From Escherichia coli 042 (GTDB lineage Bacteria > Pseudomonadota > Gammaproteobacteria > Enterobacterales > Enterobacteriaceae), in assembly GCF_000027125.1 (NCBI RefSeq), contig NC_017626.1: a DNA stretch of 64,000 nt. One strand, written 5' to 3'. Positions 27,125-64,000 of this stretch are shown piece by piece. Position 1 is the first letter of the stretch. Every line of letters starts with the position of its first letter. Below the pieces are notes generated by a model, which was not told where the DNA came from, did no database searches, and was given only the letters and a program-made list of their open reading frames with translations. The translations under genes were made by a program, and so were the position numbers.

Positions 27125-27200
27125 GCCCGGATAGCTCAGTCGGTAGAGCAGGGGATTGAAAATCCCCGTGTCCTTGGTTCGATTCCGAGTCCGGGCACCA
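27125..27200 (+). tRNA. pheV: tRNA-Phe (anticodon GAA)
   Basis: GCCCGGATAGCTCAGTCGGTAGAGCAGGGGATTGAAAATCCCCGTGTCCTTGGTTCGATTCCGAGTCCGGGCACCA; 76 nt, CCA end, GAA anticodon in loop. Confidence 0.95.
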
Positions 27201-28663: not shown

Positions 28664-28981
28664 TCATCCCGGGCAAATGCCCGGGAACTTACTCCATGAA
28701 TATTTTCTTTGTTAAAAAGACAAAATGGTATTAACTGATGTATTTACTGTTTACCTGATTGTTCCCTGGAGGAGGATTATCAGAATCTGCGGTTATTCAT
28801 TATTTATATTCAATGAAAAAGTAACCTCATAAAAAAACTCACTCACAGAGTGATGCGGGATAACTGACGTAAGGAATACTGCCGGGATTTGGTGGTCCCT
28901 TGTGCTGATATGAATACGGATTCTGTTTTATACAGAATACTTTTCAGTACAAGCAACTGTATTACAGTTTGCCATATATGA

Positions 28982-31373: not shown

Positions 31374-31597
31374 TTCAATCATCTCCGCTATCACTTTCCC
31401 CGAACGATAAATGGGGTTGCTCATTCTAAAACCATGCAAAAGATAGGGTAAAAGGAATGTTTTCGATCGAATCGATCGATAAAATCGATCGTACCCGATA
31501 AAGTTTTCTTATCGTACCCATAAAAATGGTAAGGGCTGGTTTAAGAGGTAATCGCAGCGGCATGGAAGTATTAAGACCAAAACAGCACGAGATAAAG

Positions 31598-31781
31598 CGG
31601 CTGAACGTCAGATGAGCCACATGGAACGTAATTCATTAAGGGCGGCTTATATCCATAAAACAGAACACCTGGAATAGCGTCGGTTGATGCTACAGTGGTG
31701 GGGGGATTTTCTGGATACAAACTCGAAAGAAAATACCAGCCCCTTTGAGTATACGAAGATTAACAATCCATTAAAATATTA
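31598..31781 (+). pseudogene. integrase 3' end remnant (duplicated C-terminal fragment of P4-type integrase)
   Basis: Nucleotide stretch ctgaacgtcagatgagcca...ttgatgctacagtggtgg...attttctggata...aatccattaaaa is clearly homologous to 28481..28663 (end of the intact integrase) but carries an in-frame TAG; followed by a similar ccgggca-loop-tgcccgg hairpin. Confidence 0.7.
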
Positions 31782-32010
31782 AGCACTCCGGGCAATCTGC
31801 CCGGAGTGCTTTAGCTGGCATAACGGGCTACTGATCTCCTCTGGTTACAGATAACGACTTCAGCCCTCTGAAAGAGAAAAGCGGAAGCTCAGGAAGGTTG
31901 TGATTTGCTTTTAACCTTTTTAATTTAGAAGTATTATTTTGAGATTAATCCACTTCCCATCGTCATCCTTTTTGGTGTGCGTGAAAAGCTATTTTTAAGG
32001 TTACTGCCTC

Positions 32011-34320
32011 ATGGAGTTATGGATATTTATAGTAGCTATTTATTTGATTTATATTCTTTTTTTCAAAAAGAAGAAAACTAAGTCCGCGGGCTCTTATACT
32101 TCCGCTCCTGTGAAAGCACCACCTAAAGAATGGCTTGCTAACAACAAAAAAAATCAGTCTGTAATGCAAAACGAGGACAGCGAAGATGACAATCTGGCTA
32201 CGTTTACACTAAGTGGCGGGCGGAATGTCGAATACAGCATAACAGCCACTCAACGCCAGAATTTCTCAAAAACTACCGGTGCTTTGGCTCGTTGGATTTT
32301 TCCGGGAGAGATGATCACAGTCAGTGGGATAGAGGTTACCGGCGGTCACTTCTATCTTGGGCAGCGTATGAAACCTGCCGGGCATAACTCAGGCGGTTAT
32401 TATGATGGCAATAACGAGGCATCGCTAGTTGACGACACGCTTAAAATATACCCCACACCTTACATTTACGAAGATAGTTCATTAGGGTATTGGCCCAGTT
32501 TTTCCTCACTTTCACCTGAAGCTCGTGGTGCGTACCTGAGTTGGCTTGCCAGCGACAGATGCGACACTTCCTGCCCAATTGGTTACGTTTTCATTTATCT
32601 GTATGGTCTGGAAAGAAGGGCGCTTGTTGACAGCAGGGACAACAATATATCCGACGATGAGTTCTATTCTCTTTTCAAAGAGATCTGCCGTCTCAGATCG
32701 GTTTTCAATGAAAACCGATCTTTCCGGAATTACTCATCCCAGTTACTTGAAGCGATGTCCATTCTTCGTCCGAACGAAAATCTTGCAGCAGCTCTCAACG
32801 ATGATTCGGAGTTCAGCAATAGCATGCAGTTCAGGTTAATCCTGGCAAAGACTGTTGATACAGGAGCCCCGGTTCCAGCGGATCTGGCTCTGACGTGGGT
32901 GACAAACCATGCTGAATACTCATTACGAACCCCCGCCCGCCGCTGTGCGAAAGAATTTGCTGCACTATTTAAACGGCGTTACACCCTTAAATACGGTGAA
33001 GGGATGGTAGTGAAGCCGAATAAAGCGCGTCTGCGTTTAGATTACACGCCTGCAAGTCCCAGTTTGCGAGGTATTCGGCTTCCTGTTCCCGACTTGCCTG
33101 ATCCAGGTGCATTGAAAGGCCCTGTTCAGAAGCTTATGGCCATTGCCGATATATGCACAGGTGAACTGGATGCTTACAGTCGTTACCTTGGTAGAAAAGG
33201 TACTTCAGCAAATGATACCGCTGCAATTTTGTTGCTGCCTTCAGAAATCGTTAACGAAAGCGCAGAAAAAATATTAAGTACATTCAAACACTGGGCTGAT
33301 GACGCAATCCGCAGTAAGGGTGGGATAGTTTCAGTTGCTGACTACTGGTCACATATGAATGCCACCTGTCCGGCGAAGATCAATAAAAAAGAGGCCGACT
33401 TAATGCAAGCCTTTGCACAGAAAATGGGATACTGTCTGGCTCCTGACCCCTATCACCACCACGTAAAGGCAGATGTCGATGGTGTACTTGTTTTATTCCC
33501 TGCTGGTGAAAGAGGACGTTTCTCACCTTCTCCTGAATTTATCACAGCTGTATTGACGCTCCGATTAGGTTCGGTAGTCGCCTTGATTGACAATTCTCTC
33601 GATCAAGCCGAACAGAAAGTGCTTGAGAATGCCATCAACAACAATGCCAGCTTCAGCGATGATGAAAAGCGCTCTCTGCACGCATATTTAACGTGGCAGC
33701 TTCATACTCCGGCGAATATGACGGGAATGAAAAGCCGGATTGAATTACTCGGTGCAGCGGAAAAATCAGCTGTGGGTAAGGTTATCGTTAGTGTCGCTTG
33801 CTCTGACGGCAGAATTACGCCTGCCGAAATCAAACAGCTTGAGAAGATTTATACAAGCCTGGGACTGGATCCCTCATCCGTATCAAGCAATATCCATCAG
33901 CATTCCGCAACTGAAACTGCTCTCGTTTCATCTGTACCAGCTAATCAGTCGACGGCAGGGTTTACGCTGGATGCCAACGTACTTGCCCGCCACGAATCTG
34001 CCACTGATGATGTTCGTAAATTACTGAACTCAATTTTCACTGAAGAAGAACCAGAACAACCAGAAAGCGCTCCAGCCTCATTAACCGGGGAAGGGGGACT
34101 TGACTCCGCTCATAGCCAACTTTATCGCAGGTTGCTGGAGAAAGAACAATGGTCCAGAAAAGAGGCGACAGAGTTGTGTAGTAACTGGAACCTGATGCTC
34201 GGCGGTGCGCTTGAGGTGATTAACGATTGGTCCTATGCGGTGGTTGATGCACCAGTGCTGGAAGATGCTGATGATCACATTTGGATTGACCTGGAAATAG
34301 CCAAAGAATTAGAGGGTTAG
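32011..34320 (+). CDS. TerB-domain membrane-anchored protein (Shango SngA-like)
   Basis: 769 aa; N-terminal TM helix (MELWIFIVAIYLIYILFF), region with GYVFIYLYGLERR and a later ...VSVACSDGRITPAEIKQLEKIYTSLGLD block that I recognise as TerB-N / TerB-like; first gene of a tightly packed three-gene operon. Confidence 0.6.
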   Translation: MELWIFIVAIYLIYILFFKKKKTKSAGSYTSAPVKAPPKEWLANNKKNQSVMQNEDSEDDNLATFTLSGGRNVEYSITATQRQNFSKTTGALARWIFPGEMITVSGIEVTGGHFYLGQRMKPAGHNSGGYYDGNNEASLVDDTLKIYPTPYIYEDSSLGYWPSFSSLSPEARGAYLSWLASDRCDTSCPIGYVFIYLYGLERRALVDSRDNNISDDEFYSLFKEICRLRSVFNENRSFRNYSSQLLEAMSILRPNENLAAALNDDSEFSNSMQFRLILAKTVDTGAPVPADLALTWVTNHAEYSLRTPARRCAKEFAALFKRRYTLKYGEGMVVKPNKARLRLDYTPASPSLRGIRLPVPDLPDPGALKGPVQKLMAIADICTGELDAYSRYLGRKGTSANDTAAILLLPSEIVNESAEKILSTFKHWADDAIRSKGGIVSVADYWSHMNATCPAKINKKEADLMQAFAQKMGYCLAPDPYHHHVKADVDGVLVLFPAGERGRFSPSPEFITAVLTLRLGSVVALIDNSLDQAEQKVLENAINNNASFSDDEKRSLHAYLTWQLHTPANMTGMKSRIELLGAAEKSAVGKVIVSVACSDGRITPAEIKQLEKIYTSLGLDPSSVSSNIHQHSATETALVSSVPANQSTAGFTLDANVLARHESATDDVRKLLNSIFTEEEPEQPESAPASLTGEGGLDSAHSQLYRRLLEKEQWSRKEATELCSNWNLMLGGALEVINDWSYAVVDAPVLEDADDHIWIDLEIAKELEG

Positions 34321-34323
34321 TGA

Positions 34324-35640
34324 ATGTCTGTAACACGTATAAGAGTGAAAGAGCGCGACGCTATCATTCAGTCACTTAAGTCGGGAGTAACGCCAAGAAT
34401 AGGTATTCAGCATATCCAGGTTGGCCGCGTGAATGAGATAACCGCCCTCCATCAGGATATTGAACGGATTGCTGATGGCGGGGCAAGCTTCAGACTTATC
34501 ATTGGTGAGTACGGTTCCGGGAAAACATTCTTTTTAAGTGTTGTACGGTCTATTGCGTTAGAGAAGAAGCTGGTCACGGTCAGTGCAGACCTTTCTCCCG
34601 ACAGACGTATCCACTCATCGGGAGGTCAGGCTCGTAATCTCTACTCAGAGCTTATGAAAAATATGTCCACCAGAAACAAACCAGATGGCAATGCATTACT
34701 TAGCGTTGTGGAAAGGTTTGTTACTGAGGCAAGGAAGGAAGCTGATGCGAACGGCTCCCTGGTCTCATCCGTTATTCATAAACGCCTTGCTGCTTTGTCA
34801 GATATGGTGGGAGGATATGACTTTGCGAAGGTCATTGACGCATTCTGGCGCGGGCATGAGCAGGATAACGAAACCTTAAAATCCAATGCTATTCGCTGGT
34901 TGCGGGGCGAGTACACCACAAAAACTGATGCCCGTAATGATCTTGACGTCCGAACGATTATCTCAGACGCCTCGTTCTATGATTCTTTGAAGTTGATGAG
35001 CCTTTTTGTCCGTCAGGCAGGCTATGCCGGACTTTTAGTTAGCCTCGACGAGATGGTGAACCTCTTCAAGTTGAATAATACGCAAGCGAGAACGGCCAAC
35101 TACGAACAAATTTTGCGGATTCTGAATGACTGCCTGCAAGGCTCCGCCGAAAATATTGGTTTTATCCTCGGGGGGACGCCAGAATTTCTTTTCGATCCAC
35201 GTAAGGGGCTCTACAGCTATGAAGCGCTCCAGTCGCGTCTGGCAGAAAACCGATTCGCACAGAAAGCTGGCGTGATTGACTACTCGTCCCCCACGCTGCA
35301 TCTTGCCAGCCTCACTCCTGAGGAACTGTATATTTTACTGAAAAACCTTCGTCATGTTTATGCTGGTGGAGATCCCGTAAATTATCTGGTGCCAGATGAT
35401 GCTCTGACCGGGTTTCTGCATCACTGCAGCAAAACCATCGGAGATGCTTACTTTCGAACTCCCCGCAATACCATAAAAGGTTTTCTGGATATGCTGGCTG
35501 TGCTGGAACAAAACAGAACGATGAACTGGCAACCCCTCATTGAGGGGGTGGCGATTGAAGAAGACAAGCTCAGCGATATGGATGATGCCATTGTGGAGGA
35601 AAGTGATGACGATGATGGCCTGGCGAATTTCAGATTATGA
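34324..35640 (+). CDS. P-loop ATPase (Shango SngB-like)
   Basis: 438 aa; Walker A GEYGSGKTF, Walker B LLVSLDEM; starts 4 nt after upstream stop and overlaps downstream start. Confidence 0.65.
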   Translation: MSVTRIRVKERDAIIQSLKSGVTPRIGIQHIQVGRVNEITALHQDIERIADGGASFRLIIGEYGSGKTFFLSVVRSIALEKKLVTVSADLSPDRRIHSSGGQARNLYSELMKNMSTRNKPDGNALLSVVERFVTEARKEADANGSLVSSVIHKRLAALSDMVGGYDFAKVIDAFWRGHEQDNETLKSNAIRWLRGEYTTKTDARNDLDVRTIISDASFYDSLKLMSLFVRQAGYAGLLVSLDEMVNLFKLNNTQARTANYEQILRILNDCLQGSAENIGFILGGTPEFLFDPRKGLYSYEALQSRLAENRFAQKAGVIDYSSPTLHLASLTPEELYILLKNLRHVYAGGDPVNYLVPDDALTGFLHHCSKTIGDAYFRTPRNTIKGFLDMLAVLEQNRTMNWQPLIEGVAIEEDKLSDMDDAIVEESDDDDGLANFRL

Positions 35641-37835
35641 GTAGTGCCTACAATAGTCTTGATCCCCGTGTCCGTAAGTGGGTTTATAAGCAGGGCTGGT
35701 CATCCTTAAGGCCCTTGCAGGAAAGCTCTATTCCGGCAATTTTAGCCCGTGATCGTGATGTACTAATTAGTGCAGGTACAGCTGCGGGTAAAACAGAGGC
35801 TTTCTTTCTTCCTGCCTGTTCAGCGATTGCAGATCTCACTGGTGGATTTGGCATTATCTATATCAGTCCATTGAAGGCATTAATTAACGATCAACACCGT
35901 CGTCTTGAGAGTCTTGGTGAAGCCCTGGAAATGCAAGTGACGCCCTGGCACGGGGATGTACCACAAAGCAAAAAGAAGAAAGCACGGACAACCCCTTCTG
36001 GCATCTTACTTATCACACCTGAATCACTTGAGTCTTTGCTCATAAACTCATTGGGTTGGCTCAAACAGGCGTTTTCTTCTGTGGCATACATTGTTATTGA
36101 TGAGTTCCATGCTTTTATTGGCTCAGAGCGTGGTATACAGCTGCTTTCTCTGCTTAACAGAATTGACCATGTGCTGGGACGCCAGTTGAATCCAGTTCCC
36201 CGTGTCGCGTTGAGTGCCACACTGGGAGAGCTGGAAAAAGTACCAGAACTATTGCGCCCGGATAAGAGATTACCTTGTGAAACGGTAACAGACAGTAATA
36301 GCAAAGCCACAATACAGGTTCAGGTTAAAGGTTATCTTGAGCGGGTGCCCGAAAAAGGAAAAGAGCTCCAGAGCTCTGCTGAACAGCTCGTCTGCGCGGA
36401 TATTTTCAGGCTCTGCCGTGGCGATTCCCACCTAGTCTTTGCTAACAGTCGAAAGCGTACTGAAAGCATAGCGGCAACACTGAGCGACATGTGTGAAGCA
36501 AATGTCGTTCCTAATGAATTCTTTCCTCATCATGGTTCCCTTGCAAGGGAGTTGCGTGAGGCGCTTGAAGCCCGACTGCAGAAAGGGAATTTGCCCACAA
36601 CCGCTGTTTGTACAATGACTCTGGAGCTGGGTATTGATATTGGTAAGGTGCAGTCTGTCATACAAGTGACACCTCCGCATTCTGTTTCCAGTCTGCGTCA
36701 ACGCATGGGACGTTCAGGGCGGCGCGATTCCCCATCGGTGCTGAGAATGTTAATTACTGAACCTGAACTTACCGCAACCAGCAGCATTGTGGATCATTTA
36801 CGGCTGCAGTTGGTTCAGGCGATGGCAATGATCAGGTTGATGATCTCTAAGCGCTGGTTCGAGCCTGCAGATATCCGGCAGAAACATTACTCCACACTAC
36901 TACACCAGATCTTGGCTATTACTGCGCAATGGGGAGGTGTTCGTGCCGATCAGCTCTGGTCACAACTTTGCCAGACAGGTCCGTTCCGGAATGTGGATAT
37001 AAATGACTTCAAAAGTCTGCTTAAACATATGGGGACATGTGGCCTGCTCACTCAACTAACCAGCGGTGAAATAGTTGTCGGGGCTGAGGGGGAGAAACTG
37101 ACTAATCACTACACGTTTTATACCGTATTCAATACACCTGAGGAGTTTCGCATTGTAACGGGAAACCGAACTCTTGGCACAGTGCCTGTAGACTCCCCAC
37201 TTTTGCCGGAGCAGCACATCATCTTCGGCGGACGGCGCTGGAAAGTGACAGAGATCGAGGTTGAAAAAAAGGTTATCTATGTTGAGACGACTAAAGGCGG
37301 TCAGCCGCCACTATTCAGTGGTAGCGGGATGTCTGTTCATGATGTTGTTCGCCAGGAAATGCTCACTATCTACAGGGAAAATGATTACCGTATCGCGGTA
37401 GGCAACAAGAGAGTCGATTATGCTGATGCCGCAGCCAGAAGCCTCTTCGCGGAAGGAAGTGACAACTTCCAACGCTACAATCTACAAAATGACTGTTTTA
37501 TTGCCAGTGGTCAGAACTGCTACGTGATCCCGTGGATGGGGGATAAAATTGTCAATACAATTACGTCCCTGCTTATACGTTGTGGCTTTAAAGCCAGTTC
37601 ATTTGCAGGTGTGATAGAGGTAGAGGACTCAGGCGTTGCCTCTGTCCAGCGTGCACTTAAGAAAATGCTATTGTCGGGGCTACCTTCAGAGTTTGAGCTT
37701 GCTGCAGTTGTTCCCGACAAGTATCTGGATAAATATGACGAGTATTTACCAGAGACTTTGCTTGCTAAAGGGTATGGGGCACAGGCGTATGATATAGAAG
37801 GAACGTGCATCTGGCTGCAGAAACACCTTCAGTAG
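35637..37835 (+). CDS. DEAD/DEAH-box (Lhr-like SF2) helicase (Shango SngC-like)
   Basis: 732 aa; motif I AGTAAGKTEAF, motif II VIDEFH, motif III SAT, motif VI MGRSGRR; ATGA start/stop overlap with upstream ATPase. Confidence 0.7.
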   Translation: MSSAYNSLDPRVRKWVYKQGWSSLRPLQESSIPAILARDRDVLISAGTAAGKTEAFFLPACSAIADLTGGFGIIYISPLKALINDQHRRLESLGEALEMQVTPWHGDVPQSKKKKARTTPSGILLITPESLESLLINSLGWLKQAFSSVAYIVIDEFHAFIGSERGIQLLSLLNRIDHVLGRQLNPVPRVALSATLGELEKVPELLRPDKRLPCETVTDSNSKATIQVQVKGYLERVPEKGKELQSSAEQLVCADIFRLCRGDSHLVFANSRKRTESIAATLSDMCEANVVPNEFFPHHGSLARELREALEARLQKGNLPTTAVCTMTLELGIDIGKVQSVIQVTPPHSVSSLRQRMGRSGRRDSPSVLRMLITEPELTATSSIVDHLRLQLVQAMAMIRLMISKRWFEPADIRQKHYSTLLHQILAITAQWGGVRADQLWSQLCQTGPFRNVDINDFKSLLKHMGTCGLLTQLTSGEIVVGAEGEKLTNHYTFYTVFNTPEEFRIVTGNRTLGTVPVDSPLLPEQHIIFGGRRWKVTEIEVEKKVIYVETTKGGQPPLFSGSGMSVHDVVRQEMLTIYRENDYRIAVGNKRVDYADAAARSLFAEGSDNFQRYNLQNDCFIASGQNCYVIPWMGDKIVNTITSLLIRCGFKASSFAGVIEVEDSGVASVQRALKKMLLSGLPSEFELAAVVPDKYLDKYDEYLPETLLAKGYGAQAYDIEGTCIWLQKHLQ

Positions 37836-39244: not shown

Positions 39245-39283
39245 AACATTAACTCACTGAAATAATATACATATATGACGGTC

Positions 39284-39922
39284 TCAGCGAACCGTCCATG
39301 CCGGACTGAAATCCTCTTCCAGAAACAGCTCCGTCAGCCCGCTAATCTGTTTCAACCTGAGAACTTCATCCTGGTCCATACCCAGCTCCGTACCAATACG
39401 TTCATCCGTCCAGCCCAGCCGCGACAGGTCCCTGACAATATCAGACATTGAAGTTATCTGGTGCTTCCCCCTGGCCCGGTTATGTCTAATGGTTGCAGCA
39501 ATACGTGAGGCCTGTCCCTTTCTTTCCGGATTAATACAGGTCACTGGCAACCAGCCCTTCAGGCGTTTTCCCGTACCTGCTTCCCTGCCCAGTAATTGAC
39601 GATGAAAACCATCCACGACCAGATAATGCTCCTTCTCTTCCGAGACAACCACAGGCTGCGTGAACCCATCCTGCTCCAGTGAATGTTTCAGCAGTTTCTT
39701 CTCACCCGGCGCCATGACATTGGGGTTATAATCGTTGGCCACCACCTCATCTGCTTTCACCCACAGCACACAGTCCACAGGCTCCTGTGCAAATGGACTG
39801 ACCTCATGAAGCACCCTGCGCAGATGATTCAGGGCCTGTATGGCCTCTTCTTCTGGTCGTTCCTGGCTGAAGTACTGACGAATCATGTTGCTCAGTATCT
39901 CCGGTGTCACAGAATCCCCCAT
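39284..39922 (-). CDS. ibrB: ParB/Srx-like nuclease-domain protein (IbrB-like)
   Basis: 212 aa; ParB N-terminal-type motif region VVVDGFHRQLLGREAG...IRHNRARGKHQ; start overlaps upstream gene by 16 nt. Confidence 0.6.
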   Translation of the reverse strand: MGDSVTPEILSNMIRQYFSQERPEEEAIQALNHLRRVLHEVSPFAQEPVDCVLWVKADEVVANDYNPNVMAPGEKKLLKHSLEQDGFTQPVVVSEEKEHYLVVDGFHRQLLGREAGTGKRLKGWLPVTCINPERKGQASRIAATIRHNRARGKHQITSMSDIVRDLSRLGWTDERIGTELGMDQDEVLRLKQISGLTELFLEEDFSPAWTVR

Positions 39923-41139
39923 TCCTTCCTCCTTTCTTTCATACGCTGCAGATAACGTTCATAGTGCCGGGGTTTGTTCGGACTGAAGGAGAGGGTACGG
40001 CACCAGAAATCATTCTTTATGAGAGTCTTACAGATACGTCGCCAGGACGGAATATCCCGGCTCCCCAAGTCATTCTCCTGTTCATCCGGGATGTCATCCG
40101 GGAAGCCCCGCGTCTGATACCAGCGCAGATAGACAGCTATCTTGTTGCGGTAATGTTCTGCCGTTCTTTCCGGCATCACATCCAGCAGAAACATCGCATA
40201 GCTGCGCCAGGTATGATGGGCTGGTTTTGATATGCGCTTACGCAGGGCAAAATAAGCCCCGCTTTCATTGGCATAAAGTGCCCCGCTGGCAGCCCCTGAC
40301 ACCCGCTCACACATCCTGGCCCAGGTTTCCGGCTCCAGAACATGGTAAAGCCACAGTCCCTTACGTTGTTCAGGACCAAAAGGTTCACAGACACGCATGT
40401 TGCGTAACGGTACGCCGGCACGGTACATCAGGTCATACAGGGGATTGTAGATGGCACGGGTTCTGGTGTGATATATCCAGATATCACGAGTTTTCCAGTC
40501 ATACAGCGGATACATGGTGTAGTAAAACCCTTCAGGCGATGCCGTGGTCCAGGGCTTATCATCGGCGTATCTCAGTTTGCGCTGGGATACCAGTCCCATG
40601 AACCGGTTAAGGGACTCATCCGCACGGACACCGGTCAGTACTGCCACACCACATTTATTGTCTGCAAACCAGGAAGAAAATGCCGGAACAAATTCTTCAA
40701 ACGTCATGGCATACCGGTAAAAGGGAAAATACGCCATATCTGTAATGGCCCCCTCCGGTGGCTGGCGAACCCACTTCACACCAGACTCCCAGCATATCCA
40801 CTCCGGCTGAAACTGAGAAACACCGTTTACCGTGGTCAGGGGAAGTGCCACCCAGTAAAAGGTTTCCGTCACATCATGGTACATTTCCCGCATCTTCTGA
40901 ATATGTTCAATGGTGCACTGGTACTGAGCCTCCCAGTCAATGAACAGTACAGAGAAACGACGTTTTTTCCTGCGGGCCACATCAGCCAAAAGATGGAAAA
41001 GCACGGTGGAATCTTTACCACCGGAAAAAGAGAGACAAACTGATGGAAATGTTTCAAAAATCCACTCAATACGAGCAATTGCTGCACGCAGAACATTCTC
41101 TCCAGTAAGGACTTTCTCCGTTAAAAAATTATCATTCAT
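39907..41139 (-). CDS. ibrA: PAPS-reductase-like (PP-loop ATP pyrophosphatase) protein with C-terminal extension (IbrA-like)
   Basis: 410 aa; PP-loop SFSGGKDSTVLFHL near N-terminus, long C-terminal domain; gene pair architecture matches IbrA/IbrB (YbdN/YbdM-like) as I recall it. Confidence 0.65.
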   Translation of the reverse strand: MNDNFLTEKVLTGENVLRAAIARIEWIFETFPSVCLSFSGGKDSTVLFHLLADVARRKKRRFSVLFIDWEAQYQCTIEHIQKMREMYHDVTETFYWVALPLTTVNGVSQFQPEWICWESGVKWVRQPPEGAITDMAYFPFYRYAMTFEEFVPAFSSWFADNKCGVAVLTGVRADESLNRFMGLVSQRKLRYADDKPWTTASPEGFYYTMYPLYDWKTRDIWIYHTRTRAIYNPLYDLMYRAGVPLRNMRVCEPFGPEQRKGLWLYHVLEPETWARMCERVSGAASGALYANESGAYFALRKRISKPAHHTWRSYAMFLLDVMPERTAEHYRNKIAVYLRWYQTRGFPDDIPDEQENDLGSRDIPSWRRICKTLIKNDFWCRTLSFSPNKPRHYERYLQRMKERRKEWGIL

Positions 41140-41279
41140 TTATTTTTACTTTATGCAAAAGAAACCTGTTTATGCTTTCAACATATAGCAACAAACATTA
41201 AATGACGTTTAATTAGCCACTACTAAAATTGCTTACTTTCATCCTGATGAACATATAAAACATATTACAAACATATTTA

Positions 41280-42040: not shown

Positions 42041-42964
42041 TTATATAAAACAGTAAAAGTGAATCAGCTTAACAAATGCATCTTTCATTTGTTTTTGCTG
42101 CTGCTCGCTTCCATTCTGGTTGCGGACTTCACCATAGTGACACAACTGTTCTTCTGCCAGGATATGCCGGTTAAAAGCCTGCATGATGCCAGACACCTCC
42201 GTTTTCAGCTCACTGACCGTCATGTATTTTCCCCGCTGTTCATCCGGACGGTTCAGGCGCTCAGCCAACAGCTGTAAGCGGGTCATGCCTTCGTTCCAGC
42301 CAGTCATCGCCTCTTCCGGGAGCGCACGACTCCTTGCACTCTTCTGCCAGTTATCCACCATTTCCTGAACACGAGGATTGTCGGGGAAAAGTACCATCAG
42401 TTGCTGCAGCAATTGCACACTGCGTTGCAGGTTGTATGCCGGGGGGAATTCTGTCAGTCGCGTTATCTGCTGACCGGAAAGGGTTATCCACTCTGACGCA
42501 TGATTTAACAGTGTTCTGCTGAGCTGCATCATCTGGTCTGCTGAAAGCACATCCGGTGAGGGTGTCAGCAGCGCCCTGAGTTGCTGCTCCGCCGGTGATG
42601 GCTGTGTCAGAAACTGCCATCCCGGAATGGCCACGCAGACCGCCAGCAATGCCGTACAGACACCTGTAACAAACGTTTTCAGAAACGTGAGCGGGGATTT
42701 TTGAAGGAAGAGTGTGGGCTCTGTTTTTGTTTCAGAAACAACATACACCAGACGGGAGTGCGGCAGGGTCTGATGTTCCTGCACATCCGGAGCTTCAAGC
42801 CTGAGTGCCTGCGCCAGTAGCGTTACCGGAGACGATACTTCCCCCTGCACAGGCTGGTTCTCCAGGCGGGTGATATATCCCTTCACCATGGCTTCCGGTA
42901 AAGCCACTTTACTGCTCTGTTTAAGTTCGTGCCAAGCCTGCGTATTTTCATGGAAGGAGATCAC
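42041..42964 (-). CDS. hypothetical membrane protein (possible C-terminal portion of an ImpA/VasL-like protein)
   Basis: 307 aa with central TM helix (LTFLKTFVTGVCTALLAVCVAIPGW); start overlaps the upstream ImpA-N-like ORF by 17 nt in another frame. Confidence 0.4.
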   Translation of the reverse strand: MISFHENTQAWHELKQSSKVALPEAMVKGYITRLENQPVQGEVSSPVTLLAQALRLEAPDVQEHQTLPHSRLVYVVSETKTEPTLFLQKSPLTFLKTFVTGVCTALLAVCVAIPGWQFLTQPSPAEQQLRALLTPSPDVLSADQMMQLSRTLLNHASEWITLSGQQITRLTEFPPAYNLQRSVQLLQQLMVLFPDNPRVQEMVDNWQKSARSRALPEEAMTGWNEGMTRLQLLAERLNRPDEQRGKYMTVSELKTEVSGIMQAFNRHILAEEQLCHYGEVRNQNGSEQQQKQMKDAFVKLIHFYCFI

Positions 42965-43388
42965 TCAGTGTCTTCAGGAATGTTTCGGTCTGATACAGCA
43001 GGGGCAGGTTGTCACGGTTATCCGGAGGCATGGCCCGGAGCGTTTTTTGCAGACGGTTGAACAGACCGGTAATAATTTCCAGCCGGGAGTGTGTATTCAG
43101 CGGCCACATCACTGACCAGTGATGCCGGGTCAGCGCAGCAATCAGAGCCAGCCCTTCATTCAGACCACTTAACCCTGTTGTATGCATCCGGGCAATGGTG
43201 TACCAGGATGCCGTCTGTAATTCCACGCCATTGTGTTCATACAGACGCAGGCAGAGCGTTTCCACGTAACGCCAGTCCACATCAGGGCGTGCCGGGTGGG
43301 TCAGTTTGCTGATTTCATCGCGCAGGGCAGCATAATCCGGTAATGACCGGGGGTCACCACCGGTTTTCAGTTTCACTTCAGAAGTCAT
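42948..43388 (-). CDS. ImpA-N-domain-like protein (TssA/VasL N-terminal-like)
   Basis: 146 aa; GGDPRSLPDYAALRDEISKL...DVDWRYVETLCLRLY...ASWYTIA...GLSGLNEGLALIAAL...W pattern resembles the ImpA N-terminal domain of T6SS TssA/VasL proteins (from memory). Confidence 0.4.
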   Translation of the reverse strand: MTSEVKLKTGGDPRSLPDYAALRDEISKLTHPARPDVDWRYVETLCLRLYEHNGVELQTASWYTIARMHTTGLSGLNEGLALIAALTRHHWSVMWPLNTHSRLEIITGLFNRLQKTLRAMPPDNRDNLPLLYQTETFLKTLSDLLP

Positions 43389-43781
43389 CGGCAGATTCAG
43401 TGTTTAGGTATTAAACCATTGTTAATTATAGGGAGAGAGTCAGTGCGATACCGTTACCCAGGAAAGGTATTCCACTGCGCAGATGATTGCCGGTGTCACA
43501 TCCCACCGCCGTTTCAGAACCGGTAACAGCTCATTAAGGTTTCTGATATAACGCTCAGTGAAAACCGGACTGATTACAGGTAATGGTGATATGACAGGTA
43601 TCGTTGCCAATATACACGGCTTCCAGAGGTATGAATCTTACATTCCAGTACCAGGAGTACGGCGAGTGGTTCAGATGAAAAAGACGCATCTGAATATCGT
43701 TAAATAACGGGTTCATGGCGAATTAAATAAACCTGATAATAACAGTATGGGGAAAGTCCGGAATAAAGAAATGGTCCGGTA

Positions 43782-46888: not shown

Positions 46889-47122
46889 TTAATTCTCATC
46901 TCCGGAGACAAGCCCTGAAAACCACTCAGGGTGTTCACTGTATGCCGTGTTCAGCGCATCCCAGGAAACGTTTATATAAAAGCTGTCCTGCAATTTCCGG
47001 GTAACCACCTCTGCCAGGCGGTTCCGGTTATCCGCCAGTCCGGCATAACCTCTCTCTGTCAGCCACTCATTCAGTTCATGTTTCAGAGACAGATTAATAA
47101 TATCATAATCGGACCTTGCCAT
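46889..47122 (-). CDS. hypothetical protein
   Basis: Track ORF 46889..47197; plausible start at MARSDYDIINLSLKHELNEW; downstream of and co-oriented with 47218..47877. Confidence 0.3.
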   Translation of the reverse strand: MARSDYDIINLSLKHELNEWLTERGYAGLADNRNRLAEVVTRKLQDSFYINVSWDALNTAYSEHPEWFSGLVSGDEN

Positions 47123-47217: not shown

Positions 47218-47877
47218 TCAGAGATGGTATGCCGGTACTTTGCGGGTTGTTCCTGTCAGGTTATCGTGCACCTCCACGGTCGTGGTCACCACCGGCATTC
47301 CGGCCTTTCTCAGCCTCAGAACATCAGCCGCAATACGCTGACTGCCAAACCAGAACAGGCCGTCCAGTGCAGTCACCAGTAAACCCGCCTCCAGTGCATA
47401 CTTCAGCCGTTCACGGGGCGCTTTCACTTCCCGGGCAACCTGCTGATATGGCAATGATGTGTTTTCATTCCCAACCACGCGACGAATACGGTGAGACAGA
47501 TGATACCGGAATGTATCCGGCACACCAGAAAGGCTGGCCTTCAGGCTGTACACGCAACCAAACCGTTTATCGTTAAACACCACATTTTTCTGGCTGATGC
47601 CCCATTCTTCACGCAGCGCGGCAATCAGTTGTGGTGTCCGGGTAAGCAGCAAGCGAAAAGGCAGTTCAAAACTGGTGACGTAATCCACATTCAGCAGTGC
47701 AATACGCAGCCGTTCTTCTGGCCCGGCCTCTGTCTGCCGGCACTCCTCCAGAACATCCTGCCACTGCTGGCGAAGACGGGAAGACTCATTCAGCTCAGTA
47801 AAACTGTATTTATCCGCCAGATAGTCAATTCGTGTACGCATACTGAAGAGCATTCCGTATAAAGATTCAGCTGGCAA
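47218..47877 (-). CDS. hypothetical protein
   Basis: 219-aa ORF, co-oriented with neighbours; no motif recognised. Confidence 0.4.
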   Translation of the reverse strand: MPAESLYGMLFSMRTRIDYLADKYSFTELNESSRLRQQWQDVLEECRQTEAGPEERLRIALLNVDYVTSFELPFRLLLTRTPQLIAALREEWGISQKNVVFNDKRFGCVYSLKASLSGVPDTFRYHLSHRIRRVVGNENTSLPYQQVAREVKAPRERLKYALEAGLLVTALDGLFWFGSQRIAADVLRLRKAGMPVVTTTVEVHDNLTGTTRKVPAYHL

Positions 47878-48108: not shown

Positions 48109-48657
48109 TCACTGAGCTGTAATCAATGTACAGCGCTGTACCGGACGATGGGTAATGGCGGTCACAACCGGTAACCCCAGAGACAATGCGACTGTTTTTA
48201 ACGCAACATACTGACCGGATGTATCACCCCGGGCAACCCGAAAACACCTTTCCACCCGGCATTGTCCGCCAGCACTTATCACCTGCCAGCTATGTTGCAG
48301 TAAATCCACCACTTGCGAACATTGTTCATCAACTGTGACACTGGCTCGCGGGTGACAAATACTCGTCTGGCTGAGCAGCAACAGGCATCGAATTGTTGCT
48401 CCTTCATGTTGTTCCCGCAACCAGCGTAATACCACCGGAGAGGATGGACTGGCAGTGTGATTACGCTCAGTAATACGTTCATGCAGTTGTCGATAAAAGG
48501 AAGTACAGAATGCCTGAATCTGTTGCCCGTTGATGTTTCCTTCAGCCGAATGGAGCGTGAAGTGGACTGCCAGCAGACGCGGCCAGTGGTCCACCGCCTG
48601 CTGAACAAAACGCCGGATGTCTCCCGGCTCTGAAATTAAGGCTTCGGTTATTTGCAC
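48109..48657 (-). CDS. hypothetical protein
   Basis: 182-aa ORF with GTG start at 48657; its 5' end and upstream region are duplicated at 61420..61514. Confidence 0.45.
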   Translation of the reverse strand: MQITEALISEPGDIRRFVQQAVDHWPRLLAVHFTLHSAEGNINGQQIQAFCTSFYRQLHERITERNHTASPSSPVVLRWLREQHEGATIRCLLLLSQTSICHPRASVTVDEQCSQVVDLLQHSWQVISAGGQCRVERCFRVARGDTSGQYVALKTVALSLGLPVVTAITHRPVQRCTLITAQ

Positions 48658-48732
48658 GAAATGTTCCTTTTCAAACCCTGTTGAATTTTGTTAAGCCAGT
48701 GCAGACACAGTAAAGCGCGCATCAACACCTGA
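48641..48732. repeat. left copy of ~95-bp imperfect direct repeat flanking the microcin cluster
   Basis: gcttcggttatttgcac...tgttgaattttgttaagcc.gtgcagacaca...gcgcatcaacacc shared with 61420..61514 (identical blocks of 17, 19 and 11 nt). Confidence 0.7.
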
Positions 48733-49087
48733 AATGATGGTTTTATTCAGAGTATATGACTTTCTTTTACCCGCTCAAGATACGTTCCCTAGCGATATCA
48801 TCAGAAGTTTATGTGTTGTGTATCCATCCATATTAATCTGGTTCCAGTTTTCGGTATATGTCATGAGGAAACATTACAAATATATTCTGGAGCGGAGAAA
48901 GGAAATTGAAACCGTTTCAGAAAGGTTGATACGTGAGGCTGATACGAGAGAATATGAACTATGGCGTCCTGCCCGTCGTTTTTTCTCCATTCTTTTTATT
49001 GTTCTATTAGTTTATATTCATTCACTGATAACAACTATAAAATAAAAATTATGGCTGTTCTGATACCGGAGAAGAAACGTTCATTCT

Positions 49088-59952: not shown

Positions 59953-61071
59953 TTATTTCCCGTTGTTTTTTAATTTTCTCATCAAAACCTCTGCGATCTC
60001 TGCAGGACTGGGTTGTTCAGCCATTTCAGCGGCTACCTGATCTGAACAGAAGCGTAGTGAATCATCATAAAGCAGGCGATTTACCAAATCACTGGTCAGT
60101 CCATGCTTGTCCGGAATAATCCCACACCCACGCATCGCAACAATTTCTGCATTAACAGAGCGATCTGCACCTTCGCCAAACACAATCTGTGGTATCCCAC
60201 TATACAACGCTGTCAGGGTATTACCTGCGCCACCATGATGAATAAATCCATCAGCTCCATTAAGGAATACACCCATAGGTATCCAGTCAACCAGACGTAC
60301 ATTTGATGGTAGTTTTCGTAATCCAGTACGAGCATTTATTGCAAGTTGCAAAATGATATCAGCATCAACTTCATTTGCAGAATCCATAACCCATGAAATC
60401 AGCTCCAGACCATCAACCATTGGTTTTACAGTGCCAAGGCTGATGAGTAAACGTTTTCGATCAGAATCCCTGTCCCACCATGTTTCCTTTACAGCACCTC
60501 CGTTATAAGGAATATATCTCATTGAGATAACCGGTTCTTCAGCATTTTTAAGAATGCTCATACTTGGGGGAGCAACATCAATCCATGCTAAATCACATAG
60601 TGGACCGCTGACTCCATGCCGCCTGTAAGCATTGCTTAAAGAACGGTTTAACATCTGAATATGGGCAGATGTATGCGCGAATCCAACAGCCAGCATCACT
60701 GAAGGAATTCTATATTTAGCAGCAACCAATGGGCCTGCCGGACCAAGCGGGGGATAGACTATTAAATCTGGCCTCCATTTTCCTGCAAAATCGATGAGGT
60801 TATCTGCCATTTCATCGCTAAAAAAAGAGAAATGACCAATAATATTACTTTTTTTCCTCAACTCTTCCTGATGGCGATATCCAGCCTCTGAATCTAAACT
60901 TGGAACTGCATCAAAAACAACCAGTCCAGCTTCTGCTGCTTTATTCGCGAATTTGCCAGCACTACTAATTACTACATCATGTCCGATTACACGAAAGGCC
61001 TGAGCCAGAGAAATCAATGGGTATAACAAACCGTACAGCGGTGGGCCAATAAAAAGAATACGTTTTCGCAT
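59953..61071 (-). CDS. mchA: enterobactin C-glucosyltransferase (IroB-like GT1)
   Basis: 372 aa; GT1 signature HHGGAGNTLTALYSGIPQIVFGEGADRSVNAEIV. Confidence 0.7.
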   Translation of the reverse strand: MRKRILFIGPPLYGLLYPLISLAQAFRVIGHDVVISSAGKFANKAAEAGLVVFDAVPSLDSEAGYRHQEELRKKSNIIGHFSFFSDEMADNLIDFAGKWRPDLIVYPPLGPAGPLVAAKYRIPSVMLAVGFAHTSAHIQMLNRSLSNAYRRHGVSGPLCDLAWIDVAPPSMSILKNAEEPVISMRYIPYNGGAVKETWWDRDSDRKRLLISLGTVKPMVDGLELISWVMDSANEVDADIILQLAINARTGLRKLPSNVRLVDWIPMGVFLNGADGFIHHGGAGNTLTALYSGIPQIVFGEGADRSVNAEIVAMRGCGIIPDKHGLTSDLVNRLLYDDSLRFCSDQVAAEMAEQPSPAEIAEVLMRKLKNNGK

Positions 61072-61419
61072 TAAAAAAGTCCGTCTTCTGCTTACCTGTT
61101 TATTTTTCTATCGCTAAGAAAACATAATTAATATTATTTTTATGTGAGCTTATGCACAAAAATAACCAAGTATCTTATCTTCTGGTAGAGATACAGGATA
61201 CAGTTTGTAGGAGCTTTCTTTTTTGAACAATGAGTTACAGGACAGTTATGCCAACCTACCGGAATCAGTATCACACCAATAAATGACAGATCATACCTGA
61301 AATTTGAATTAACAGGCATCATGAATGTCAATAGTCTAAGCGGTTACTACTTACATCGCTTGCATAAATACTAAACACTGACTAGAAAAGTATTGGATAA
61401 CCCCGTCACTAAAAGTAAC

Positions 61420-61514
61420 GCTTCGGTTATTTGCACAGAATACGACTCCTTCAGACTCTGTTGAATTTTGTTAAGCCGGTGCAGACACACGGGAAGGTGC
61501 GCATCAACACCGGT
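61420..61514. repeat. right copy of ~95-bp imperfect direct repeat (contains truncated 5' end of a 48109..48657-like gene)
   Basis: Shares gcttcggttatttgcac / tgttgaattttgttaagcc / gtgcagacaca / gcgcatcaacacc blocks with 48641..48732; the minus-strand reading VQITEA... here stops after 19 codons. Confidence 0.7.
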
Positions 61515-61705
61515 GTAATGCCAGTTATAAACAATGTGAATGGAATGACGAATCAGTCAGGAAAGAGCTACAACCTGCTGGCTGACCGGAGAGGGTCAGC
61601 AGGAAAATGAACGGTAATGTCGCCAGCACCAGGGACAGGGCTGATTTCCGCAATACCAGCGCCGGCATTTTGCACATTGCCAGCGTACCGGCATCACAAC
61701 ACGTT

Positions 61706-61942
61706 TCATGCTGCTGCTCCTCGTGATTCCTCAATTCGCTGCTGCATCCACTGCTCCACTTCACTTTTGTACCAGCGGCTGCTGCGGCCCAGCTTGATGG
61801 GTTTCGGGAAATGGCCTTCACTGATCAGCTTGTAAAACCATTTATCTGTCATACCGGTGAAACTGGTGATGTAGTTCATGTCGATCAGGGGATCGTCGGC
61901 ACGCAGCAACACGCAGTCGTGGCCTGTCATTGAGGTCAACAT
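61706..61942 (-). CDS. alpA: AlpA-family phage/island transcriptional regulator (excisionase-like HTH)
   Basis: ...MTDKWFYKLISEGHFPKPIKLGRSSRWYKSEVEQWMQQR matches the AlpA/Vis HTH family; true start probably internal. Confidence 0.6.
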   Translation of the reverse strand: MLTSMTGHDCVLLRADDPLIDMNYITSFTGMTDKWFYKLISEGHFPKPIKLGRSSRWYKSEVEQWMQQRIEESRGAAA

Positions 61943-62010
61943 GGTCAGAATATCCTCTGTGAGATTTATGAAGGTTGTGCGAATGCGGGGAAAGGTGCTG
62001 AGCCGTATTC

Positions 62011-62718
62011 TCAGAACGGTCCTGCAGATCCGGGATAGCCGGGATTACCGGCGAGGCAACGGGCTTCCGGATCGCACACACCACGACGATCGCGGGCGAA
62101 ATCACTGAACGCCCAGATCAAATCTTTGAGGATGTCTTCGCAGTCCGGTGAACGACTGTCCAGCACCACATCCCGGGTTATCTGTTTCTGGTACGGTGCC
62201 GCTTCCCCCGGTGACGCGAAGCCCAGTACGTTGCTCCAGGCATCCAGAATCAGCCGGTCCAGTTCGGGGCCGTCGAAATACTCCTGTCTGACGCACAGCA
62301 CCACGTGGTATTCCGGCTTTTCCGGATGACGGGTCAGGAGCCAGCAAAGGTCGCGTCCGGGTTTCGCATTCATCAGCGCACTGACGGTTTCGATAAAATC
62401 CATACCAAACCAGGTCTGTCTGCTGTTGAAGGCGTTGTCATGTTCCCACGGCAGACGAAGCAGGATCCGCCGTATCCGTGAGCCGGACTGCTCACGCAGC
62501 GCACGCTCAAGGACGCCGATGACTTTGTTCTGATAAGATGGCCAGAAGGGTGCCAGGCTATAGTCGAAATAAGGAATAGCATTCATAAGATATGTTCCGT
62601 TATGCGCAGCCCACAATGCGTCCTGCCCGTGAATGAGCTGACGTGTTATGGCTTGCGGATGAGATTGATGGAATAAGTGAAGAACTGAAGCAGAACGGGA
62701 AGATAAGGGACAGAACAC
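62011..62718 (-). CDS. hypothetical protein (island-associated, YfjI-position)
   Basis: 235-aa ORF upstream of alpA on the same strand; no motif recognised. Confidence 0.4.
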   Translation of the reverse strand: MFCPLSSRSASVLHLFHQSHPQAITRQLIHGQDALWAAHNGTYLMNAIPYFDYSLAPFWPSYQNKVIGVLERALREQSGSRIRRILLRLPWEHDNAFNSRQTWFGMDFIETVSALMNAKPGRDLCWLLTRHPEKPEYHVVLCVRQEYFDGPELDRLILDAWSNVLGFASPGEAAPYQKQITRDVVLDSRSPDCEDILKDLIWAFSDFARDRRGVCDPEARCLAGNPGYPGSAGPF

Positions 62719-62832
62719 CGGATTCAGGTTCAGGATGAATGATCTCCGTTGACTTCAGTTCACATCATTAATCAATGCGGTAAGTTTTTACCGACGGAGT
62801 GTTTCCAGGAGCGGAGGCTCAGGCCTTAAGCT

Positions 62833-63399
62833 TCAGAAGTGAGGCTTACGAGGACGCCCTGCAGCAGGACGTTCAGGAACTTCATTGCAGCCGTAGGCAC
62901 ACAGCCCGTCTTTTTGTTCTTCTTTCGCCAGATAATGCAGGGCACCGCGAATATTATCGATGCTTTCAGGATCGTTGTGGCGCACAGGAATGTTGATGTT
63001 GTATGCATAATGCGGCTGATATGTACAGCGGTGCGCCGAACCACAGTTATACGTAATTGCCTGCCAGCATTCCGCTATCCGCTCCGCAAAGGGATATATT
63101 TTTTTAACCCTCTGACGATCGATCCAGAAAACGACATGCGCATGAAAACCATGATCAGCCGTCCATTCAATCACCCAGAAGAAACCAACGATATTTTCAA
63201 ATTGTTCCACCTGCTCCAGCAGCATACGCAACTGCAATTCAAGCCAGCGATGATCAGGTTGTAAGAAATCAGGCGTATCTTTCCTGTAGAAGAAATCCAT
63301 GCGTAAGGCCCGCAGGCAGGAATAGCGTGCCATCATTTGATTGATGTGATTGTCAAGTAAAGCGGTAAAAAACCAGTTTGGTGTGTAAGATTTAGGCAT
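62833..63399 (-). CDS. inovirus Gp2-family (YfjJ/YagK-like) protein
   Basis: 188-aa ORF with ...WVIEWTADHGFHAHVVFWIDRQ... block resembling Gp2-family proteins of CP4-type islands (from memory). Confidence 0.45.
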   Translation of the reverse strand: MPKSYTPNWFFTALLDNHINQMMARYSCLRALRMDFFYRKDTPDFLQPDHRWLELQLRMLLEQVEQFENIVGFFWVIEWTADHGFHAHVVFWIDRQRVKKIYPFAERIAECWQAITYNCGSAHRCTYQPHYAYNINIPVRHNDPESIDNIRGALHYLAKEEQKDGLCAYGCNEVPERPAAGRPRKPHF

Positions 63400-64000
63400 G
63401 TTGATGACTCCTGAAAGTTAATGATGTTTTAAGCTCTGTGAACGAATTAATGCTTTCGCTCATAATCAGATCTAAAACGGTAATAACTTACAGATGGTAT
63501 TTATCAGGCATGCTGTAGCAGAATGGATACGACGGGTTATTAACGATACGCAGCATTATGCAGAAAGAAATGGATTATCTGATGGTATTAGCTAAAGAGA
63601 TGAGATAAACGAGGAGTAAAGAAAATACAGACTCAATAAAACATCACGAAATACTGCAAAATACGCGATAAAACACCACGACCAGAAGGTTAAGAAACAT
63701 ATTGCGACCAATCATAAACTACAAACTTGCTCTCAGTGGTTGTAAAAACCGTGTACAAGGCCAATGCAATAAACTTATATGCGCTCATTCAATCTGTTCT
63801 TAAGGACATGAACATTCACGGCTCACGATAGCAGAATAAAAAATACCACTGACATGATTTTCATCCTGCATCTTAGATAATACAACCCAGAACAAACATA
63901 ATCAGGAATCTCTCCTGTCAATTCCATTGTTTATCCAGCTCTGTTAATCGTTACAGAATCATGGATACCTTATCAAAAAGTAAACATTCGGTTAATCAGT

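Follow-up and report, generated by a model that had tools for sequence, protein, structure and literature searches.

An AlpA-like regulator gene and a gene for a Gp2-type protein lie near the right-hand end of a 64,000-nucleotide stretch of the Escherichia coli 042 genome (contig NC_017626.1; hereafter the window), far from the only intact integrase gene of the island that holds them and next to one copy of a direct repeat. The question raised by this locus is whether these genes belong to the island around them or are the trace of another one; an earlier note, made from the letters of the window alone, had proposed a second P4/CP4-type element or a relocated island module. We find that the module is the conserved core of a single island, and not a sign of a second or tandem island. 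Such a core is already annotated and very common; the island type, GI-pheV, is known, and so is its passenger, the microcin H47 island.

A single island at a tRNA-Phe gene

The genes of the module, the stretches beside it and the left end of the island are as follows (HTH, helix-turn-helix; ORF, open reading frame; aa, amino acids; attL, left attachment site):

61706-61942, minus strand: AlpA-family winged-HTH gene (78 aa; matches Pfam PF05930, Phage_AlpA)
62011-62586, minus strand: divergent YfjJ/Gp2-superfamily gene (191 aa from the annotated ATG; the longest GTG start gives 62011-62718)
62833-63399, minus strand: Gp2-type gene, here Gp2-188 (188 aa; invariant HUH motif, H86-A-H88, and YxxK motif, Y156...K159)
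61525-61677, minus strand: small conserved hydrophobic ORF directly downstream of alpA (50 aa, from translation)
63400-64000, no strand: AT-rich non-coding stretch upstream of the Gp2-188 gene, the start of about 1.4 kb (GC content 0.34)
27125-27200, plus strand: tRNA-Phe gene pheV, attL of the island, downstream of yqgA
27398-28663, plus strand: P4-type tyrosine integrase gene (int), the sole intact one (Pfam Arm-DNA-bind_3, Phage_int_M, Phage_integrase)

The three co-oriented ORFs, including the AlpA-like HTH gene, are present exactly where the earlier note had placed them, and its description of them as lying about 34 kb from the integrase on the opposite strand also stands, the only intact integrase gene being 33.0 kb from alpA and on the other strand. 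The tRNA-Phe gene is identified as pheV because it follows yqgA. The 78-aa protein matches the AlpA profile PF05930 with 40.8 bits (cutoff 21; E 2e-10) and PHROG excisionase/regulator families with E 8e-10. When compared with diverged E. coli copies, the ratio of nonsynonymous to synonymous substitution rates (dN/dS) was 0.11-0.12 for AlpA, 0.11-0.16 for the 191-aa gene and 0.13-0.22 for Gp2-188, at dS values of up to 0.29, and each full-length copy examined carries the three ORFs intact. The three genes are under purifying selection, and they are real genes rather than chance ORFs, because dN/dS is 0.1-0.2 and the 1.7-kb block (at least 80% coverage) is present in at least 1537 of 5426 complete E. 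coli genomes, in up to six copies per genome. The GC content of the module is 0.50-0.58; on both sides the sequence is AT-rich, and the change is sharp, at about 61400 and 63400.

What lies beyond position 64000 was answered by two genomes. E. coli H3 (NZ_CP028732.1) is about 99.8-99.9% identical to the window in both backbone and island, at the same pheV site, and BEC1-S17-ESBL-09 (hereafter BEC1) carries a 99.8% identical island at pheU, the left 27 kb of the window differing from the BEC1 backbone. In both, the island runs for a further 18-19 kb past 64000 to a single right attachment site (attR), TTCGATTCCGAGTCCGGCACCA, which equals the tRNA 3' end minus one G and stands at a window-equivalent position of about 83.0 kb in H3 (beside yghD) and about 81.7 kb in BEC1 (followed by the cadC backbone). 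The earlier note had asked for this extension, expecting either immediate backbone or a second integrase or attachment repeat; it holds neither backbone nor a second element, only 18-19 kb more of one island of about 55 kb. In order, it comprises the remainder of the AT-rich gap, a 72-aa H-NS-like gene, a frameshifted HTH gene, an acyltransferase gene and the insertion sequences (IS) IS30 and IS600, then a 243-aa canonical YagK/YfjJ Gp2 gene (PF11726, E 2e-33) and two hypothetical genes, and finally a terminal arm of YfjP-GTPase, HTH, DUF905, DUF932, antirestriction, RadC/JAB, DUF987, CbeA, CbtA, DUF5983, DUF957 and DUF4942 genes.

We were not able to find a second intact integrase gene in these 18-19 kb in H3 or BEC1. 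The only second-integrase candidate is a K-12-like remnant that lies outside attR at pheU in BEC1; in K-12, too, an integrase remnant stands between pheU and cadC. With up to 3 mismatches allowed, the tRNA-Phe 3' end matched only the tRNA itself in the window and only the terminal copy in the BEC1 extension, so that neither has an internal copy; in the H3 extension, searched with the exact pattern, the terminal copy was likewise the only one. Likewise, tblastn with two AlpA queries detected no other AlpA- or excisionase-type gene in the window and BEC1 extension. Judged by these proxies, the proposal of a second or tandem P4/CP4-type element does not hold. The window simply ends inside the right-hand arm of the island, and this edge created the impression of a second element.

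The position of the module is also the usual one in E. coli. In all eight other E. coli contexts inspected (EC5, 357900, Rb-3, AR_0114, O25b:H4, VTB96959v, DETEC-E223 and EDL933), a sample from 3609 module copies, it is internal to a large tRNA-associated island. Seven of them have genes for the 243-aa Gp2 or the arm (H-NS-like, the YfjP-GTPase arm, or CbtA/DUF5983/DUF4942) in the annotated flanks. Six carry these genes to the right of the module and one, the decayed EDL933 copy, to its left; the annotated flanks of O25b:H4 show nothing but cargo and IS elements. The integrase side of these islands carries variable cargo, such as dnd/dpt, BREX, cdiBA, pap and type VI secretion system (T6SS) remnants.

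The same layout extends to other genera. A complete element of Enterobacter chuandaensis has one tRNA-Thr gene, one P4-type integrase gene (42% identical to that of the window island at the protein level), about 17 kb of cargo, and then Gp2 and AlpA genes on the strand opposite to int, their products being 56% and 70% identical to those of the window; its arm is transcribed divergently from Gp2/AlpA. We surveyed one genome per species, which yielded 32 loci from about 16 genera of Enterobacterales. AlpA is co-oriented with a Gp2-type gene no more than 1.5 kb away in 29 of the 32, with AlpA first in 16, Gp2 first in 11 and a Gp2-AlpA-Gp2 order in one; in 19 loci the arm is found upstream and on the opposite strand. 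The two loci in which a P4-type integrase gene is within reach both have it downstream on the opposite strand, and a tRNA gene beside the integrase was found among these other-genus loci only in the Enterobacter element. The full order Gp2, 191-aa, AlpA, 182-aa is seen only in the E. coli-like locus among the 32. AlpA and Gp2 genes far from int, on the opposite strand and with the cargo between, are thus the norm of this island family, and the idea of a relocated or rearranged module falls away.

The likeness to the alpA-yfjI-yfjJ cassette of K-12 CP4-57, which had suggested the earlier interpretation, holds at the level of protein families. AlpA of the window is 25% identical to K-12 AlpA (E 4e-6), and Gp2-188 is 21% identical to K-12 YfjJ (E 0.017), in an alignment that brings their HUH and Tyr motifs into register. 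The likeness does not extend to the arrangement, which is int, yfjH, alpA, yfjI, yfjJ in CP4-57, the cassette being beside int and co-oriented with it. In the window there is no YfjI between alpA and the Gp2 gene, and the 191-aa ORF has no similarity to YfjI (DUF3987); the module is 33.0 kb from int and on the opposite strand, and the order of transcription is Gp2-188, 191-aa, alpA instead of alpA first and the Gp2-family gene last. Both islands combine a P4-type integrase, an AlpA-family HTH protein, a YfjJ/Gp2-family protein and a distal arm running from YfjP to antirestriction, RadC and toxin/antitoxin genes, but the cargo of CP4-57 sits between the cassette and the arm, whereas that of the window island sits between the module and int.

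The microcin H47 island within the core string

The direct repeat next to alpA belongs to a different element, whose ends and the gene half that it has cut off are these:

~48615 to 48735, no strand: left imperfect direct repeat, attL of the H47 island, overlapping the start of the 182-aa gene
~61395 to 61525, no strand: right imperfect direct repeat, attR of the H47 island (from repeat comparison), ending about 180 bp from the alpA stop codon
46889-48657, minus strand: half of the conserved string severed by the H47 island (182-aa gene at 48109-48657, 207-aa gene at 47218-47841, 77-aa gene at 46889-47122)

The two repeats are about 120 bp long, imperfect and spaced 12,780 bp apart, and the mchB, mchI, mchF, mchS and mcmA cluster lies between them. 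GC content steps up from 0.35 to 0.52 at the right repeat. The mch/mcm cluster, the imperfect repeats about 13 kb apart and hybrid empty sites in other genomes identify this segment as the H47 island of Azpiroz et al. (2011, 2017; PMC3191183, PMC5426353), which has the same 12.8-kb mch/mcm cluster, repeats of about 120-150 bp and widespread hybrid empty sites; its published attL and attR measure 148 and 144 bp and are 76% identical (PMC3191183). The H47 island differs from the module in being a separate passenger inside it, and the flanking alpA is not named in these two papers.

In islands without the H47 insertion (EC5, 357900, Rb-3 and O25b:H4) an unbroken minus-strand string runs through Gp2-188, the 191-aa gene, AlpA, a 41-52-aa ORF and the 182-, 207- and 77-aa genes; these islands carry a hybrid empty site, observed in EC5 as attC. 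In the window the same genes stand, from left to right, as the 77-, 207- and 182-aa genes, the small ORF, AlpA, the 191-aa gene and Gp2-188, all read leftwards toward int. Comparison with these uninterrupted strings indicates that the 12.8-kb H47 island entered a pre-existing conserved string at its known attachment site and now separates the 182-aa gene from the small ORF that follows alpA. The observation that the module adjoins the right repeat was therefore correct, but its reading as a sign of tandem islands was not: the repeat abuts alpA because the H47 attachment site lies there, and it is not a boundary between two P4-type islands.

Through the insertion mchA, a microcin glycosyltransferase gene, has become the next gene after alpA and the small ORF on the minus strand (region 59953-61706). 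No terminator-like site was found between alpA and mchA, so transcription of the island operon may continue into mchA. The small hydrophobic ORF itself lacks annotation in the closest genomes, and other genomes list it at 41-52 aa; its overlap with the alpA stop codon in other strains suggests translational coupling. In EDL933, whose island is at a tRNA-Ser gene, the module has decayed, with a shortened alpA, a frameshifted 191-aa gene and no annotated Gp2-188 gene; it adjoins H47 remnants (a glycosyltransferase gene and a truncated esterase gene) and matches the class described as partial H47 with attR only (PMC3191183).

Gp2-superfamily proteins and the proposed roles of the core

The earlier note described one of the two ORFs upstream of alpA as Gp2/YfjJ-like. 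This is right for the 188-aa protein, but the count of one is too low, since profile links place both in the YfjJ/Gp2 superfamily. An identical protein to Gp2-188 is named 'inovirus-type Gp2 protein' in RefSeq. Its scores against PF11726 (YagK_YfjJ_C) and PF23343 (REP_ORF2-G2P) are both below cutoff, at 20.5 bits (cutoff 25.8) and 26.1 bits (cutoff 27.8), and a 94% identical relative has precomputed matches to both families. Residues H86, H88, Y156 and K159 are invariant in 25 sequences of the 188-aa family across genera. These motifs make Gp2-188 a candidate HUH nickase or Rep-like protein. It differs from HUH rolling-circle Reps and nickases (inovirus gpII-related PF23343; parvovirus and rudivirus Reps) in being just 188 aa long with no helicase or other domain, and in its sub-cutoff Pfam scores.

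The 191-aa protein has no direct Pfam or PHROG family match, and only two remote full-length relatives were found among 1.84 billion representatives, the protein being nearly restricted to E. coli. One of these relatives (P0196) matches PF11726 with 41.8 bits (E 1.4e-10), the hidden Markov model (HMM) of the 191-aa family matches K-12 YfjJ (E 2.4e-12) and the 243-aa Gp2 of the island (E 5e-8), and an AlphaFold2 model shows the same order of helices and strands as in the 188-aa protein. In place of H-U-H it has E-Y-H, and it lacks a conserved C-terminal Tyr. The 182-aa protein on the far side of the H47 island resembles UCP030791 proteins (E 1e-10); its family HMM matches the 243-aa Gp2 (E 9e-8) and YfjJ (E 3e-5), and it has neither the HUH nor the YxxK motif. 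Pairwise BLASTP among the 188-, 191- and 182-aa proteins gave nothing significant, and hhalign of their shallow alignments gave a probability of 1.6%, though the alignment was in register; the paralogue relationship is established only through remote homologues and family HMMs. On these profile links, the three ORFs are Gp2-superfamily paralogues around AlpA. The HUH and YxxK motifs survive only in the 188-aa one, which is apparently catalytic; the 191- and 182-aa paralogues are degenerate.

We propose that the module is the conserved regulatory and replication-like core of one P4-integrase island of about 55 kb at tRNA-Phe. The island is laid out as tRNA, int, variable cargo, the core string, the H-NS-like gene, the 243-aa Gp2 gene, the arm from YfjP-GTPase through antirestriction and RadC to CbeA/CbtA, and attR. 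The operon would be expressed from the AT-rich region upstream of Gp2-188, and probably kept silent from there; this stretch presumably holds the promoter region, and no ORF, Rfam family or notable repeat was found in its 1.4 kb. AlpA would be a recombination directionality factor (RDF), an activator, or both, enabling the P4-type integrase to excise the island. Gp2-188, judged by its motifs, fold and conservation, may nick the excised circle, as a single-strand nickase for rolling-circle replication or mobilisation, and the two degenerate paralogues would be its non-catalytic DNA-binding partners.

By analogy with AlpA proteins of other elements, the most likely role of AlpA is that of an excision regulator or RDF for the pheV integrase, because the island has an intact P4-type int, intact attL and attR and a sole AlpA/Xis-type gene, and because tested AlpA proteins provide precedents. 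In CP4So of Shewanella oneidensis excision requires AlpA and can be induced by AlpA alone, whose gene H-NS silences at its promoter (PMC5148205), and in GIsul2 more circles form when AlpA is overexpressed (PMC9376610); these papers also cite CP4-57 AlpA and HPI Hef as excision precedents. CP4So AlpA shares with the AlpA of the window its family and its setting on a P4-like element, and an AT-rich 1.4-kb upstream region and an H-NS-like gene are present here. The two AlpA proteins resemble each other at family level only.

We put the probability of this overall reading at roughly 0.75. Several points weigh against it. The sequence past 64000 was read from the two proxies, H3 and BEC1 (99.8-99.9% identical), and the integrase fragments and IS elements make the island a mosaic, in which some past accretion is possible. 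The 1.4-kb stretch upstream of Gp2-188 shows no origin-like repeat, hairpin, or promoter or terminator enrichment over background. A literature search on the function of YfjJ/YagK/DUF3296/Gp2-type island proteins returned annotation mentions only and no functional study.

Among the other explanations, the one with most to recommend it is that AlpA is not an excisionase but a transcription activator or antiterminator for the genes downstream, namely the small ORF, the 182-, 207- and 77-aa genes and, by read-through, cargo including mchA. Such a protein would be likened to the AlpA of phage-inducible islands or of Pseudomonas. The place of alpA inside a co-oriented gene string 33 kb from int, and the lack of a terminator-like site before mchA, are consistent with it, and the first description of CP4-57 AlpA was as an activator of intA (cited in PMC9376610). 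The AlpA-family proteins tested on P4-type elements nevertheless promote excision (PMC5148205, PMC9376610), and we hold the odds to be against an activator role alone. The two roles are not mutually exclusive, and by analogy an activator function stays a live alternative.

We regard it as very improbable that the module is the inner end of a second tandem island, its integrase lying beyond the window or lost, or a relocated integrase-proximal alpA cassette. AlpA and Gp2-family genes do adjoin int in CP4-57 and, beside rox, in the SRL island (PMC6980539); the window has a duplicate of the int 3' end at 31597-31795, the right side of the module has IS30, IS600 and IS1414, and integrase fragments occur a few kb to its right in 357900 and to its left in DETEC-E223. 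Neither proxy, however, has a second intact integrase or an internal attachment site, the compact Enterobacter element shows the same layout with a single integrase, as do islands across genera, and the module is linked to the arm or to 243-aa Gp2 genes in seven of the eight other E. coli islands; compared with CP4-57, the module differs in gene order and strand, lacks YfjI, and shares only 21-25% identity. Little speaks for the ORFs being decaying remnants of an old element with no present function: many neighbouring genes are pseudogenes or IS-disrupted and the EDL933 copy has decayed, yet intact ORFs in all full-length copies, low dN/dS values and invariant catalytic motifs of the 188-aa family across genera make this highly improbable. 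Least credible of all is a role of the module in the neighbouring H47 island, for which AlpA might act as excisionase, say, or Gp2 as recombinase. The nearness of the H47 attR to alpA would fit, as would the report that the enzyme behind the RecA-independent excision of the H47 island is still unknown (PMC5426353). None of 16 K-12 site-specific recombinases is required for this excision (PMC3191183, PMC5426353). In K-12, however, a plasmid with H47 flanks of just 71 and 95 bp still allowed excision (PMC3191183), an empty H47 site lies beside five of the eight module copies inspected, and the H47 repeats carry no single-stranded DNA hairpin signal of the kind used by HUH enzymes (z-scores 0.1-1.2).

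To return to the conserved core of a single island, a more far-reaching version would see in AlpA and the three Gp2-superfamily genes an uncharacterised replication or mobilisation core of a very widespread family of Enterobacterales P4-integrase islands, with analogues in Pseudomonas, in which AlpA triggers excision and Gp2-188 then nicks the circle for rolling-circle replication or single-strand transfer. We consider this doubtful. If true, 'non-conjugative' pathogenicity and defence islands would encode their own step in spread.

Related islands and cargo

The window island conforms to the GI-pheV islands of Nhu et al. (2024; PMC11537424), with which it shares pheV, intP4, an imperfect 22-23-bp attR and the terminal 'yee' module; yqgA-pheV-int is found in the window, and the attR and yee arm in the H3 proxy. 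The intP4.5 type of that study also resembles the window island in its ibr, T6SS-remnant and helicase content. The AlpA/Gp2 string is not discussed in that paper, and unlike the islands described there, a 99.8% identical island also occurs at pheU, in BEC1. The Shigella SRL island has a similar internal set of AlpA(Vis)-like and YfjJ-like Gp2 genes (orf39-orf41) just before the YeeP GTPase arm, but it also has an integrase-proximal RDF, rox, whereas the window island has the internal AlpA only (PMC6980539). Outside the Enterobacterales, the Pseudomonas tmRNA (transfer-messenger RNA) islands I23, I44 and I55 carry the integrase at one end and Gp2-like and alpA genes at the other, with RadC and HTH genes as core and variable defence cargo between (bioRxiv 10.1101/2024.08.29.610337). 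They belong to another host clade and target, and their alpA is terminal, beside attR, while in the window island an arm of about 20 kb follows alpA.

As a claim of a second element the locus is of limited importance: what it holds is the normal, annotated core of an island that is common in E. coli. It is useful for island annotation, as AlpA and Gp2 genes far from the integrase are the rule of the family, and cargo, defence systems and passengers such as the H47 island accumulate between them and int. Because YfjJ/YagK/Gp2-type proteins are conserved, under selection and paired with AlpA, they are a reasonable target for questions about island excision, persistence and movement.

The genes around alpA have themselves been reshuffled. 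In loci of Citrobacter, Atlantibacter and Klebsiella oxytoca, AlpA shares 92-95% identity with that of the window, while the neighbouring Gp2 is only 57% identical and stands on the other side of alpA, and Enterobacter wuhouensis has a Gp2-AlpA-Gp2 arrangement. Judged from these identities, the module itself is a recombination mosaic. To its right, IS1414 lies inside the 1.4-kb AT-rich gap in H3. The 72-aa gene that follows the gap encodes only the C-terminal DNA-binding domain of H-NS and overlaps the frameshifted HTH gene; the pair may be a broken HTH/H-NS fusion.

The island as a whole, about 55 kb and 99.8% identical, is at pheV in the window and H3 and at pheU in BEC1, which suggests recent movement, or recombination, between two identical tRNA-Phe genes. 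Its complete right-hand 25 kb occurs in just 4 of the 5426 complete genomes. Many of the island genes neighbouring the module are pseudogenes or disrupted by IS elements. Between int and the module, the cargo includes a trio of genes for a TerB-N-domain protein, an ATPase and a DEAD/DEAH helicase (about 32011-37835, plus strand), which is a possible defence system. The segments at about 39273-41140 and 42041-43716 (both minus strand) contain two further groups, ibrB/ibrA-like genes (for an IbrB-like protein and a PAPS reductase) and type VI secretion remnants. Next to the integrase, a 199-nucleotide segment of the int 3' end (28478-28676) has a 77% identical duplicate at 31597-31795, and the two copies bracket an eptA-like phosphoethanolamine transferase gene and an outer-membrane protein gene, as they also do in EC5 and 357900. 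This looks like the capture of a small module beside int, with an integrase fragment left behind.

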